Sequence record: NC_008464.1
Length of the DNA: 60,238 bases
Strand: one strand, 5' to 3'
From: Stx2-converting phage 86
The position numbers are program-made. Of the stretch, positions 27,001 through 39,000 are shown piece after piece. Position 1 is the stretch's first letter. Every line of letters begins with the position of its first letter.

Positions 27001-30000
27001 CAACAACTGAGTGTTGGCGGTCAAATGATGACAGCGTAAGGGGGAAGATATGGGGTACGGCTTACTGGATATTGCGAATCAGTCACGGCGTGAGGCATTA
27101 CAGGGAATAAGTGACGCAGACCGACGACGTGAAGAAATTGAGGCTGCGAACAAACAGATGGCGGCGCAACAGAAAGCGCAGAACAAGCAGAATATCGGTA
27201 CGGGCATTGGTACGGGGGCGGCTATTGGCGCATCCGTTGGTGGTCCTGTTGGCGCTGTTGCTGGTGCAGTAATTGGCGGCATTGCTGGTTCTTTGTTTTA
27301 AGGAGTGGTGAATGAGCGGATTTGCACAGGGGTTACTTGCCGGATTCAGCACTGTTGACCAGGCAATGACCCGTCGTAAGGAGCTTGGTTTGCGAGAAGC
27401 ACAGCTTGCTCAGCAACAGAAAAATAACGAGCGCGATTTTGAATTTGCGCAGTCTCAGTTTGAACATAATAAAGACGTTGATCAGCGGAACTTTGATTAC
27501 AGAGCCAAAGTTGATGACCGCAATTACGCACTGCAGGAAAGGGAGTTTAACGCCAACCAGAATTACCGGAATGCGTCGCTGGGGATGGAACAGCAACGAC
27601 TCCAGTTGCAGAAATACAACCAGCGACGGCTTGAGTATAACGATATGCTGGCACGTGATCAGTCGGTGATGGTGGCGCTGGGAAAAGCGATTGATGCAGG
27701 TGACCATGATGCGGCCTCTCGTCTGTTCGGAAAATTATCGGATGCCAACCCCATTAAAATAATATCAACGGAAGGCTATGCTGCGAAGGCGGGTCAGGCC
27801 GTGAACAACCTGCAGAAAATCTTTGATGATAAGCCGGACAGGGCGATCGATTCGCTGAATACCCCGGAAAATCTCGATGTGCTTTCCGGCGTGTTTGCCC
27901 CGGAACTACAACAGCGTATTGGCATGCCTGATTCAACCGGGGAAAAAACGATAAAAGAGGCCAGGATTGGCAGTATCGTACCGGCGCAGCAGGAAGGGTA
28001 CGTACTTATTGGCCTTGATCTCACATACAGCGATGGCTCCACCGCGCATAAACCTGTAACAGAATACGGCAGTGCGCACCCTGATGATCAAACCGTGCTG
28101 GCGATACCCGTTGATAAGGCTATCGCTCAGGTCAGGGATCGCAGCAAATTTGCAGAGATATCGAAAAATTATGGTTATTTTATGCCGAAGCAGCAGGGAC
28201 TTTCTCTGAAAGAGCTTCAGAAGGGGGCCAGCAACGTAGCGGCGGACGCGATTAAGAATGGCGGTAATGCTCAGGCTGCGGTGGATGAATATTATGCTGC
28301 GACTGGTTCACAACCGCATCAACAGAAAATTCAGCAACAAAAACTTCAGCAACAGGTTATCAACTGGGCGGGAGATGATCCTGATAAGCTGTCATTTGCC
28401 AGAAATGTAGCGGCCCGTCAGCCTGAAATGCTGGAACCTCAGAATCAGAAATTGCTGGAGAACGGGTATGCGAATTTTCTCCGTATTCAAAAGGCCAGGG
28501 GGGAACAGGCCAGAGATGAAAGTGCTTCATCTGCATCTCAGTTTATCCGTGGACTGAAACAGAATTACGCCCAGTAATTCACGATATTCCATTAATACCA
28601 TTTCCTGATGCCCGGCCATTGTGCCGGGTTTTTTTATGGAGTCTGTATGGCCTATTCAGAGGAACAGCGTCCTGAGGCGCAACTCGGTAACCAGAATCGT
28701 AACAGCCTGAACATTCAGCAACCCGGCGAAACTGACAGCTATGAAGCATTTTTCTCTGATTCAAATCGCTGGAAGGATAACAGTACGTCGTTCAGCCTGG
28801 GCGATGTATTGCCAACAATGGGTAAAGGTTTCGCCCGGTCCGTCCGGGGAACAGGGGAAATGGCCCGTGGACTCGGTGATGCGATGATTCAGAGCCCGGT
28901 AAAAACAGGGGCGCGTATTTTAAATGAGTTCAGCCGTATGGGGCTGCCGGGTGTCGCAACTGTGCAGGATATTTTTGCCGGTGGCAGCAGGGGGGCTGAT
29001 GAGGTCATCGATACCCTGCCTGATGGCAAAAACGCGGTTACAGATACTGTCGGTAAAGGTCTGAAGGTCACCGGTAAGGCTGTCAGTGACGGCGCTAAAT
29101 CCTCGGATGAATGGCTGACCAGTAAGATGTCTCCGGGTGCTCTGCGTGCGCTGAATACGCCGATGACCGAAGGCTATGATGATTCTGCGGTCTGGGTGGC
29201 GAAGGGCGTAAACCTGATTGGTGCCCTTGTACCTGATATGGTTGCTGGCGGTGTGGCTAAAAAGGTGGGTGATGTCACATTGCGAAAAACGCTGACCGCC
29301 GGGCTGGAGAAAAAATACATCGCGGCAGGGATGCAGCCGGAAAGAGCCACGGCACTGGCAGCAGAAGCTGTCGATAAAAAAATGCCGGATTTATTCCAGG
29401 CGGGCCTGATCACCCATTCCACAGCCAGTGCACAGGGGCAGAGTGCAATGGCGGCAGCAGATGCTGTTCTTAATGCGGATTACTCTGAGCTGGCGCAGTC
29501 ACCGAAATTTCAGCAGACGTTTTTGTCCATTGACGCCGATCCGCAGCACGCACAGCTTACTGATCGCCAGAAAATGGATCTGGCAAAAGAGCGTGTTGCC
29601 GATGAGGTGCGCGCGCAGCTGGCAACAGATCCTGAATTGCTGGCTGTGAATGCCATGGCGGCAAAACTGGGCGATGCTCAGTTGCTTAATCTGGCGATGC
29701 GGGGCACGGCGAATACCGTTAAAAGCGGCATGATCAGAAACGCCACTGAACAGGGGGCGATTAATGCGGCGCAGGGCGGCTATTCACGCTATCAGGAAAA
29801 CATGGCACTGCGTGATACCGCCGGAATGGATGTGTCACCGTGGGAGGGCGTGGCTGACGCAACGATCGAAGGTGGTACTCTTGGTGCTGCGATGGGGGCT
29901 CCATTCGGTGCGGTTGCCGGATATCGTGGCAGACGTCAGGCCGCAGAAGAAACCGCCATGCGTGATGCTGAAACCGTGCAGCAGGGCGAAGCGGCCCCGC

Positions 30001-36000: not shown

Positions 36001-39000
36001 CGCTTAATCGGAGTGTGGCGGGTGAGGATGATGACGGGGTTAACTGGTATGACAAGGTGCCTGATCATGTGAAAGAGCGCAACCTCGTTATTATGAAATC
36101 GATGTTCGGGGGCAAAGCCGGTGAGTACTGGAGTATTCCTCTGCCTTACGGGTACAACGTTTTCTTCCTGCTCGGGCATACCGCTGAAGGTGTGGCGGCG
36201 GGTGACCTGACGGCGTCCCGTGCTGCCGGTAATGTTGTTGGTGGTGTGCTTGGTGCATTCAGCCCGATTGGCAGTGAGACGTCGGAAACACTGTCCGGGG
36301 CATTGCTGAAAAATGCAGCGCCGACCATTCTGCGTCCGTTTGCGAACCTTGCCATGAATGAAAACTTCATGGGGGCGCAGATTTACCAGGAGAACATGCC
36401 GTTTGGTACACCAAAACCTGACAGCCAGCTGGGAAGACGTTCAACGCCAGAAGCGTACAAGGCGTTTGCATCCTGGCTGAATGCGTTCTCAGGTGGCAGC
36501 CAGTACCGTTCAGGCGCGGTGGATATCACACCGGAATCGCTGAAATACTGGGTGGACTATATCTCTGGTGGTACAGGTCGCTTCATTTCCAAAACCACGG
36601 ATGCGGCGGTGAAATCGCTGAATGGTATTGATATACCGGAGCAGCAGGTGCCTTTCCTGGGGAAAATTTCGGGAGAGGTGATGCCGTATGCTGACCAGCA
36701 GAAGATGTATGACCGGATGACGGAGGTTGTGCAGTACCACGCAGAGCTGAAGAGCCTGAGGGGTTCCGAAAGAACGGCATTCATTGACGAGAACAACGGA
36801 AAATTGTCGATGAACGGGCTTATGCAGGATACCCGGAAGAGACTGAAGGATTTGCGTAAACAGCGTGATGCCATTTATGCCGACAGTACTCTCAGTCTGG
36901 CGCAACAGTCGGCGATGGTGAAATCGGTTGAGCGGGATATGAAGATTGCCGTGGATCGGTTTAACCGCGAGTACAACAAAAAAGTGGGGGTGGAGTAAGA
37001 GAAATTGCCCCGTACTGAAGTGCGGGGCATTCTTAACATAATGTGTACATAAGTGAGTACTGTTGTGATGGATGTTTTGGTATTTAATGCATTTAAATCA
37101 ATGGATTGATATTTATGTTCATTATATCCATTTAACTAAGAGGACATTGTTGCGTATTGATTTTGGTTGTTCACCATATGACTGATAATACCGTCTTTAT
37201 GGTTTTAAAATCAAGGTGTAAGTTTGTTTTTGTTCATGGTTGATTATCTTCTTTTGCGTTGAAAAGTGTTTTGTTCACTTGCTAATGCGTACATATTGAG
37301 TACAGAATACATTATAAACTTGTGTACAGGATATAAAGCATTGGCACTGAGCGACACCAAACTACGAGGCCTCTACGGAAAACCCTACTCTGGCCCTGCT
37401 GAAATCACCGATGGTGACGGGTTAAGTGTGCGGATTACTCCAGCAGGAACTATCACGTTTCAGTACCGTTATCGCTGGAATGGTAAGCCAGTACGTCTTA
37501 CTGTCGGGCGCTATCCGTCTACTTCACTGAAGGACGCGCGTGTTATCGTCGGTGAGATGCGCGCATTGTACATGAAGGGAGTTAACCCTAAAAATTATTT
37601 TGCGCCCAGTGACGGCGAACTGACATTAAAAGAATGCCTGGATCAGTGGTGGGATAAGTATGTTACTGATCTGAAACCCAATACACAGACGCTTTACAGA
37701 TCCGTCGTGTACAACACTATGTACACACAGTTTGAAGGCTCGCCAGTTGCCAGTATCCCAGTATCGGCATGGGCTCGTTTCTTTGACAAACAAGAAAGCC
37801 TCAACAAGAAAAAGGCTCGTGTTTTGTTGTTACAACTGCGTTCAGTTATTAACTGGTGTATCAGCCGCCAGTTAATCCCATCATGCGAATTACTCAAGCT
37901 TAGTGTTAAGAATATTGGGAAAAAACCAGATGTAGGGAGTCGTGTACTTACCTATACGGAACTGGCAAAAATTTGGCTGGCGCTGGAGAACTCAAAAGTA
38001 GTTACTTCCAACAAGGTGTTACATCAATTGCTATTGCTATGGGGGGCCAGACTTTCTGAGCTACGTCTCGCGACAGCCAGTGAGTTCAACATGGAAGATT
38101 TGGTCTGGACAACCCCAAAAGAGCATTCAAAAATGGGGAATATTATCCGGCGTCCGGTATTCACTCAGGTTAAACCTTATATCGAGAGATTGCTTAATGC
38201 GGGTTTTGATGTGCTATTCCCCGGGCAGGAAATAGATAAACCTATTGATCGTTCGTCGGCTAATTTGTACATGAAAAAGTTAAGGGAGAAAATTGATATT
38301 CCTGAATGGAGAACGCATGATTTTAGGCGTTCTCTGGTAACGAATTTATCTGGGGAAGGAATTATGCCCCACGTCACTGAAAAAATGCTGGGGCATGAAC
38401 TTGGGGGAGTTATGGCCGTGTATAATAAACACGACTGGTTGTCGGAACAGAAAGATGCGTATGAGTTGTATGCTGATAAAATTTTCTGGCACGCTAAACA
38501 GCTCGGTTAATTCCTCCGGCTTTAAGCCATTGTTCAACGGCCTGACGACTATATCGCGCCGGATGAGTAAGTACTGGTTCCGGGAATCCGTGTTTTTTTC
38601 GCAAATTATACAAAGCTGTGCGCCTTTTTTGTAACAAATCAGAAACCTCTTTTTCGGTCATTAAGTTGACTTCCATAGTATGCGCTCCTTTTCTACATGT
38701 ATTTCAACAGCCTGATATCATCCACGCCCTAAAGGACGTGGATTCCCGCTACGTTCACTCTGACAATTCGTTGATCAAGTCACGGTATTTATTCAGTTCT
38801 TGCAACGCCTTACATGCACCCTCCCATCGTTTCTGTTTCCGCCCGGCGCGGCGCGCTTCTTTCCGTGATTTACGTAGCAGGTCACCTATAATGTTGTTCT
38901 GCACTGGCTGAACTGGTTGAACTGGTTGAACTGAATCAATATCTGTTTTGCTTCCAACTCCCTCTACTGCCTGCCAGATGCCGTTTTTTACCTTTACGAT

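Follow-up and report, generated by a model that had tools for sequence, protein, structure and literature searches.

The gene studied here, an 8.3-kb reading frame of Stx2-converting phage 86 (Stx, Shiga toxin), has its closest described counterpart in ORF80 (ECs1242) of phage Sp5, which is the same gene as NP_049532 (ST933Wp72) of phage 933W. It was analysed within the 60,238 nucleotides of sequence record NC_008464.1, the whole of which is called the window below, and its product of 2,783 amino acids (aa) is referred to as the giant protein. Deletion of Sp5 ORF80, which encodes an 'unusually large' protein of 2,793 aa, gave no plaques and no lysogens, and the defect was complemented; the mutant kept DNase-resistant packaged DNA and normal-looking heads (Mondal 2016). 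In the same study the phenotype of ΔORF79 was the same as that of ΔORF80, the upstream ΔORF76 infected poorly, and an AAA+ domain (COG1483) was suggested for ORF80. The gene is thus already known and essential. Like ORF80, the window gene is the last late gene, 3' of a 421-aa gene that is probably the essential ORF79, and its product is 90.5% identical to the 933W protein over the full length, with both metallopeptidase-like motifs kept. It differs in a mosaic stretch at aa 801-1200, and the AAA+ domain was not reproduced in the window protein.

Four other groups of described proteins resemble the giant protein in part. With the polyvalent proteins (Iyer 2017) it shares LPD5, LPD1, MuF_C/PBECR, LPD38 and two metallopeptidase (MPTase) clades in one chain, encoded in a virion gene block; it differs in that its second metallopeptidase (MPTase 2) departs from the HExxxH spacing, and delivery is something that we infer for the window protein. 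The main text of Iyer 2017 makes no mention of 933W or Stx phages. With gp69 of Burkholderia phage JC1 and gp75 of Bcep22 ('DarB-like', ~4,500 aa) it shares the C-terminal ~900 aa, its place at the end of a morphogenesis block that is itself homologous and the absence of Cys, also from the upstream virion proteins, whereas the cargo is a lytic transglycosylase, a helicase and a methylase in JC1 and LPD5, two MPTases and MuF_C in the window. The virion RNA polymerase gp50 of phage N4 and gp71, gp72 and gp73 of phage DEV offer a giant Cys-free protein with an MPTase-type zincin and small and mid-sized Cys-free partners, a set proposed to act as a trans-envelope ejection apparatus; the window protein differs from gp50 in having no RNA polymerase domain in Pfam. 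Finally, aa 1172-1427 match the CLCA_X model of the CLCA_X/CLCA_N zincins (Lenart 2013) over almost its whole length, and share HEWxH followed by an Asp. Here the domain is internal to a giant protein and scores lower than the family cut-off, and self-cleavage is predicted by analogy only. Animal CLCA proteins cleave themselves.

Based on this comparison and on the analysis described below, we consider it fairly probable that the giant protein is a virion-carried, ejected polyvalent protein of the 933W/Sp5-type podophages; for any single downstream step of the mechanism our confidence is much lower. Both the kind and the member are already known, from polyvalent proteins, CLCA_X zincins, Bcep22-like giant virion proteins, Cys-free ejection proteins, Sp5 ORF80 and the names given by PGAP.

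Domain architecture of the giant protein

Four domains of the set of Iyer 2017 (LPD5, LPD1, MuF_C and LPD38) were matched in Pfam, all above the gathering cut-offs (Table 1), and the giant protein thus combines several unrelated domains, LPD families included, in one chain within a block of phage virion and packaging genes. The initial annotation, made from the sequence alone, had named it a candidate polyvalent protein, which is borne out by these matches. In that set LPD5 is listed as possibly enzymatic, MuF_C is classed as a PBECR domain, with the RNase fold of RelE-like proteins, and LPD38 is confined to the phage type (Iyer 2017). For MuF_C both the match to PF18819 and the BECR (RelE-like) fold were found, and the LPD5 region had a high pLDDT in the predicted structure. 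The long regions of no obvious similarity that had been described proved to be so in Pfam for aa 1-1046 and 1869-2465. Neither HExxH motif falls within a Pfam match. Searches of the PDB, by sequence with three segments and by profile with alignments A2 and A3, gave nothing significant. The giant protein also lacks a Walker A motif ([AG]xxxxGK[ST]), and neither Pfam nor NCBIfam gave it an ATPase family at E <= 1; the AAA+ ATPase proposed by Mondal 2016 was rejected on the missing motif and domain match.

Both motifs of the initial annotation, HEWFH at 32466-32480 and HEIIHH at 33267-33284, were recovered at exactly these coordinates. The first lies in a domain (MPTase 1) that is covered by the NCBIfam model CLCA_X (NF041907) over aa 1172-1427, model positions 3-245 of 250, with E = 5.5e-45, and at the sequence level the homology of this domain is unambiguous. 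The CLCA_X zincins are encoded by phages and plasmids, carry an Asp after HExxH and form the sister family of the animal CLCA metalloprotease domain (Lenart 2013). The same domain appears in Iyer 2017 as the widespread phage-type MPTase, with a signature of HExxH, an Asp three residues on and a conserved His ending strand 2. This phage-type signature was found in the window protein, and the predicted order of secondary-structure elements fits it. In an alignment of ~55 diverse homologues, H1253, E1255, H1274, E1275, H1278 and D1281 were kept in essentially every domain-bearing sequence, and E1365 and R1369 were equally conserved. As the latter two residues fall inside LPD1, LPD1 is the C-terminal part of MPTase 1. 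The model predicts a zincin fold, with a three-stranded sheet, an HExxH helix and a third-ligand helix, and it is structurally similar to solved zincins.

The second motif belongs to a different clade. An exhaustive HMMER search returned 418 relatives of MPTase 2 at E <= 1e-3, 113 of them at E <= 1e-10, and nearly all of them lie in proteins of 2,000-6,000 aa. A word-indexed protein search found only close relatives, mostly contig-end fragments and none above ~1,600 aa; the full-length architectures were taken from the exhaustive search. Among 142 aligned sequences (141 relatives and the query), 133 have HExxxH only, with the consensus RHE[IV]L[AV]HHGL, and six, the query included, have HExxHH; these are the Stx/Salmonella clade only. 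The window reads HExxHH because this clade lost one residue, and in HEIIHH either His could serve as far as can be judged from the sequence. A Pectobacterium homologue has HEVIAHH. Conservation was 99-100% for H1541, E1542, H1545 and E1597 and at least 90% for Y1586 and E1604. The shared RHE, Y1586, E1597 and E1604 establish homology to the HExxxH clade, and by these residues MPTase 2 is a member of the polyvalent MPTases 'of the form HEXXXH' (Iyer 2017). A profile-profile comparison of MPTase 1 with MPTase 2 was weak (probability 19%, E = 1e-3), and in register at the strand-2 His/Tyr-x-Pro, the N-[IL] strand and the HE motif. MPTase 2 has no Pfam model: in ten relatives (211-629 aa; six are standalone proteins of ~240 aa) no family covered the domain, and the only real Pfam matches in these ten were MuF_C and LPD1, elsewhere in relative P0280. 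A match of the second motif to Peptidase_M76 (E = 0.18) was not significant and is superseded by the family analysis. The family, with the pattern RHExLxHHGL ... Y ... AEE..A..AE, is widespread and also occurs in standalone forms of ~240 aa, e.g. P0345, P0355 and P0391.

The two ends of the protein are more constant than its middle. The N-terminal module N1, in which aa 181-199 are weakly hydrophobic and aa 405-430 form a glycine zipper, was found in 36 of 113 giant relatives, always N-terminal and starting within the first ~240 residues. It is followed by a linker that is probably disordered and whose C-terminal end overlaps the mosaic stretch. The C-terminal module, where detected among the same 113 relatives, always sits at the extreme C-terminus (median distance to the last residue, 4.5 aa), with a variable middle in front of it. 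Its predicted structure is confident (pLDDT 86.5, pTM 0.83), and searches of the PDB by sequence and profile and with Foldseek found no relative. LPD38 is flanked by, or contains, hydrophobic segments rich in Gly and Ala (aa 2435-2457 and 2515-2540). Homologues of the module occur standalone at 900-1,000 aa or are fused to ART-PolyVal, methyltransferases, PBECR1 or LPD3. Among sequenced phages the module is carried by those of Vibrio, Ralstonia, Burkholderia and Bacillus, in proteins frequently called 'DarB-like antirestriction'; the prophage surroundings of standalone modules (L002 and L003) gave no further information. We infer from these sequences an architecture in which a chassis (aa 1-450 and above all aa 1869-2783) would hold an exchangeable cargo (aa ~1030-1860), here LPD5, the CLCA_X-type zincin, the HExxxH-clade zincin and the RelE-like MuF_C/PBECR as predicted. 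In the mosaic stretch (~31047-32246, the linker end and LPD5) identity to 933W is 68%, versus 87-99% elsewhere, which suggests recombinational exchange of a cargo segment among Stx phages. The Salmonella homologues (P0012, P0161-P0168) carry a phosphoribosyltransferase-like insert of ~290 aa between LPD1 and MPTase 2, aligning at window aa ~1430-1460, another cargo swap at a domain boundary.

Table 1. Coordinates in NC_008464.1 of the giant gene, the domains and motifs of its product, and the adjacent features
Feature	Residues (aa)	Coordinates	Strand	Basis or remark
Upstream ORF, 217 aa		25937-26590	+	no Cys
Upstream ORF, 148 aa		26593-27039	+	no Cys
Upstream ORF, 83 aa		27050-27301	+	no Cys
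Upstream ORF, 421 aa		27312-28577	+	no Cys
Intrinsic-terminator-like hairpin		28610..28636	+	GCCCGGC-loop-GCCGGGT and T-run; separates the 421-aa gene from the giant gene
Ribosome-binding site GGAG		28638..28641	+	5 nt 5' of ATG 28647; read from the sequence
Giant coding sequence	1-2783	28647..36998	+	0 Cys; full-length phrog_616 match; homologue of 933W NP_049532 and Sp5 ORF80/ECs1242
N-terminal module N1	1-450	28647..29996	+	phrog_37568 match; no Pfam family
Acidic, Pro/Gln-rich linker	451-1000	29997..31646	+	composition
LPD5	1047-1190	31785..32216	+	Pfam PF18799, E = 4.5e-43
MPTase 1, CLCA_X / phage-type zincin-like	1172-1430	32160..32936	+	NCBIfam match; includes Pfam LPD1 (aa 1351-1430, E = 3e-23)
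Active-site motif HEWFHSLD (HExxH-x2-D)	1274-1281	32466..32489	+	HEWFH = aa 1274-1278; fits Iyer 2017 and Lenart 2013
MPTase 2, HExxxH clade of polyvalent metallopeptidases	~1460-1676	33024..33674	+	family analysis
HEIIHH	1541-1546	33267..33284	+	family consensus HExxxH; clade short by one residue
Helix EFLAHMAE	1597-1604	33435..33458	+	invariant E1597 and E1604; candidate third-ligand helix; modelled helix at local residues 562-576
MuF_C / PBECR domain	1740-1831	33864..34139	+	Pfam PF18819 above cut-off, E = 3e-18; RelE/BECR-like RNase fold
Conserved C-terminal module, 915 aa	1869-2783	34251..36995	+	mostly helical, with a small beta domain
LPD38	2466-2671	36042..36659	+	Pfam PF18857, E = 4.7e-49; inside the C-terminal module

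Virion association and loss of cysteine

Burkholderia phage JC1, a Bcep22-like phage, and the window have homologous terminase, portal, major capsid and head-closure proteins. Residues 3619-4514 of the 4,515-aa JC1 gp69 align with window aa 1884-2774 at 26.7% identity (E = 2e-64); in BLASTP the match to gp69 was confined to the C-terminal ~900 aa, and N1 had no match at E <= 1e-3. In CsCl-purified JC1 virions, gp69 was detected with 51 unique peptides and the second-highest score after the capsid protein, and the products of the two genes next upstream, gp67 and gp68, were detected as well, as reported in the JC1 study. Through this homologue, the analysis supports the giant protein being a virion protein.

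The giant protein has no Cys in 2,783 aa, where ~37 would be expected from the average of 1.32% in the other open reading frames (ORFs) of the window. This loss extends over the family: across 113 giant relatives that are distant from one another, Cys accounts for 24 of 310,302 residues, with none at all in 100 of the 113, and 55 homologues of the C-terminal module have six in 65,303 residues. JC1 gp64 and gp66-gp69 have none, and the same was counted here for N4 gp50, gp51 and gp52. Lokareddy 2024 described the same suppression of Cys in the ejected proteins N4 gp50/DEV gp71, gp72 and gp73, and the reason cited is passage through the disulfide-forming periplasm. The Cys loss gives indirect but specific support for injection of the giant protein, which we accordingly put forward as a likely but not direct reading.

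The four ORFs directly upstream likewise have no Cys in 869 aa. Two of their products, of 217 and 83 aa, end in glycine-zipper membrane segments, and the 217-aa ORF is weakly similar to the virion protein JC1 gp64. Judged by these sequences the four are candidate co-ejected partners, and together with the giant gene they resemble an ejection-protein cassette. The 83-aa protein (933W NP_049530; L007 17468-17719) is labelled 'bacteriocin' in RefSeq, probably a mis-transfer from its Gly-rich C-terminus; its only matches in PHROGs were weak ones, to segments of tape-measure and endolysin proteins. An unrelated crAss-like contig (JGI Ga0634391_01313, L004 3055-12889) was also seen to contain a run of Cys-free genes, for 320, 601, 1370 and 962 aa, whose immediate predecessor encodes a protein with 10 Cys and the crAss muzzle C-terminal domain. 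The last gene of this run encodes a standalone LPD38-module protein, and the module is therefore common to the 933W-like and crAss-like virion gene sets.

Proposed mechanism and alternative explanations

If the giant protein is indeed carried and ejected, it would be synthesized late from ATG 28647, on an antiterminated late transcript that would read through the hairpin at 28610, and be packaged into the particle, as mass spectrometry of the homologue JC1 gp69 suggests. The terminal modules would place it there, complete the infectious virion and help in crossing the envelope. Where the protein is absent, DNA-filled heads but no infectious particles would form, as shown for Sp5 ΔORF80. At infection it would leave through the tail with the small Cys-free glycine-zipper proteins and cross the oxidising periplasm, to which the absence of Cys points. 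In or at the cytoplasm, the two MPTases may, judging by their families, cut their own polyprotein, as CLCA proteases do, or host targets, and the PBECR domain may bind or cleave RNA as its family assignment suggests.

Several points weigh against this reading. Ejection, zinc binding and proteolysis by the giant protein are deduced from sequence, and mass-spectrometric evidence of packaging comes from the homologue JC1 gp69. The virion mass-spectrometry paper on phage phi296, whose gene is identical to that of the window, is silent on the giant protein, as is its supplement, the peptide maps being limited to the capsid, the fibre and one structural protein; the underlying data are openly deposited (PRIDE PXD061229; giant protein XYY30081.1). 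A literature search on the virion proteomics of P13374-type Stx phages gave nothing usable. An anti-tail-fibre antibody failed to bind ΔORF80 (data not shown in Mondal 2016), and ORF80 was filed there under tail formation with its function unknown; classical ejection-protein mutants are not expected to show such a tail-formation phenotype. With 153.8 bits, the CLCA_X match falls short of the 260 bits that NF041907, a model of standalone proteins of ~250 aa, requires of a whole protein. Membrane insertion is speculative because the hydrophobic segments are weak (Kyte-Doolittle 1.2-1.4), and the role of the C-terminal module is read from its context because it has no PDB relative. BLASTP and three HMMs found no meaningful homology to N4 gp50, gp51 and gp52, and the parallel to N4 is therefore functional, not familial.

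The Sp5 mutant is equally the best argument for the rival that survives best, and which we nevertheless judge unlikely: a tail protein that serves only structure or assembly, as a hub, plug, scaffold or assembly factor, and that stays with the particle and does not enter the cell, its enzyme-like domains being relics or serving assembly only. Packaged DNA, normal heads and the lost antibody binding led the authors to assign tail formation; the abundance of JC1 gp69 in virions suits a structural protein equally, and the C-terminal module is modelled as compact and with confidence. Against relics, however, the catalytic residues of both MPTases are kept across hundreds of distant relatives. A fixed part of the tail would have no use for a middle that is swapped in relatives for ART, methylase, helicase and RNase domains. 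The family-wide loss of Cys is as in the ejected N4 gp50 and DEV gp71-73, and it is not general to the tail and head proteins here. The idea of an energy-requiring step is likewise unsupported, as neither a Walker A motif nor an ATPase domain was found.

Very improbable, in our estimate, is a DarB-like protein with the main job of shielding incoming DNA from host restriction, although polyvalent proteins as a class have been proposed to counter restriction and the homologues of Ralstonia and Burkholderia phages bear the DarB-like name. That name goes back to the methylase and helicase that those proteins carry as cargo, and such domains, which define P1 DarB and JC1 gp69, were not found in the giant protein in Pfam or NCBIfam. 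The match to phrog_10089 'DarB-like antirestriction' is limited to aa 2341-2671, that is to the shared C-terminal LPD38 module, and the functional label was rejected for this reason. On hosts without restriction, phage P1 can do without its dar genes. In contrast, the giant gene is, as Sp5 ORF80, essential for plaques and lysogeny on K-12, and it is therefore not an accessory anti-defence gene; nothing in the analysis supports the anti-restriction activity that the initial annotation had considered. Finally, that both HExxH motifs arose by chance, without catalytic meaning, has almost nothing in its favour: the protein is long, the second motif reads HExxH only through a deletion and zinc binding is predicted only, but two motifs were seen where 0.033 were expected from composition, both are conserved in homologues and hence not due to chance, and the sequence and the predicted fold already refute it.

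Returning to the ejected polyvalent protein, a wider proposal is tentative, and we would hold it to be possible rather than probable: the whole Cys-free run at 25937-36998 (217, 148, 83, 421 and 2,783 aa) would be the so far undefined DNA-ejection apparatus of the 933W/Bcep22-type podophages, and the 915-aa module a previously unseen fold and universal delivery chassis. If true, the chassis would first dock in the particle, where the tail could not be finished without it, and later ferry swappable enzyme cargo over the envelope; the same chassis is present in Vibrio, Ralstonia, Burkholderia and crAss-like phages, and the 'tail formation' phenotype of Sp5 ΔORF79 and ΔORF80 would be a defect of an ejectosome or core.

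Gene start, occurrence and significance

The mechanically longest ORF on the plus strand runs from 28608 to 36998 (2,796 aa), and this upstream ATG is the annotated start in GenBank PV189400 and in RefSeq 933W. Its 13 added codons fall within a hairpin (stem-loop 28610-28629, then seven T) that follows the stop of the 421-aa gene at 28577 and folds more strongly as RNA than shuffled sequence (z = -2.5), and they contain both Cys of the entire frame. As the position of the hairpin, the GGAG, the Cys-bearing extension and the equivalent start annotated for Sp5 ORF80 (2,793 aa) agree, ATG 28647 appears the more likely start. A single 8.3-kb ORF of 2783 aa from 28647 to 36998, preceded by its own terminator-like hairpin and ribosome-binding site, is also what the initial annotation had read, and both parts of that description stand. 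The strong terminator-like hairpin sits in the middle of the late block and is presumably relevant only to transcripts without Q antitermination, for example lysogen read-through from lom/bor-type moron genes upstream. Additionally, both the GC skew and the AT skew reverse their sign at ~38 kb, where rightward late genes and the integrase give way to leftward early genes; as the change coincides with this switch, it is ordinary strand-of-transcription bias.

The giant gene is the same, at 100% identity, in phages vB_EcoP_phi296 and phi419, and 184 short-tailed Stx-converting phages have it at 90-97% identity. The window is a Traversvirus Stx phage and is likewise 100% identical to phi296. The best record is a Traversvirus (Sepvirinae), in which the giant gene closes the late block and the integrase is next. 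The 3' third was present in 426 of 5,426 complete E. coli genomes, labelled 'LPD38 domain-containing protein'. The description of this as unannotated coding capacity holds for the GenBank record of phi296, where the product is a hypothetical protein, but not for RefSeq/PGAP, which names it 'LPD5 domain-containing protein' in 933W (NP_049532) and LPD38 domain-containing protein in the E. coli genomes.

To what was known, the present analysis adds that LPD1 is the tail of MPTase 1, that MPTase 2 belongs to the HExxxH clade with a deletion, that 28647 is the more likely start and that the AAA+ and DarB labels fail, as well as a conserved C-terminal chassis without structural precedent and a Cys-free block as candidate ejection cassette of Stx phages. 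Short-tailed Stx phages spread Shiga toxin genes, and an essential gene that makes up ~14% of the genome has been listed as 'unknown / tail formation' since 2016. The polyvalent class, the Bcep22-like virion giant and the Cys-free signature together replace a hypothetical protein with a concrete, testable model, in which an ejected chassis would bring along two proteases and an RNase-like domain, and in which the widespread C-terminal module may serve for delivery.

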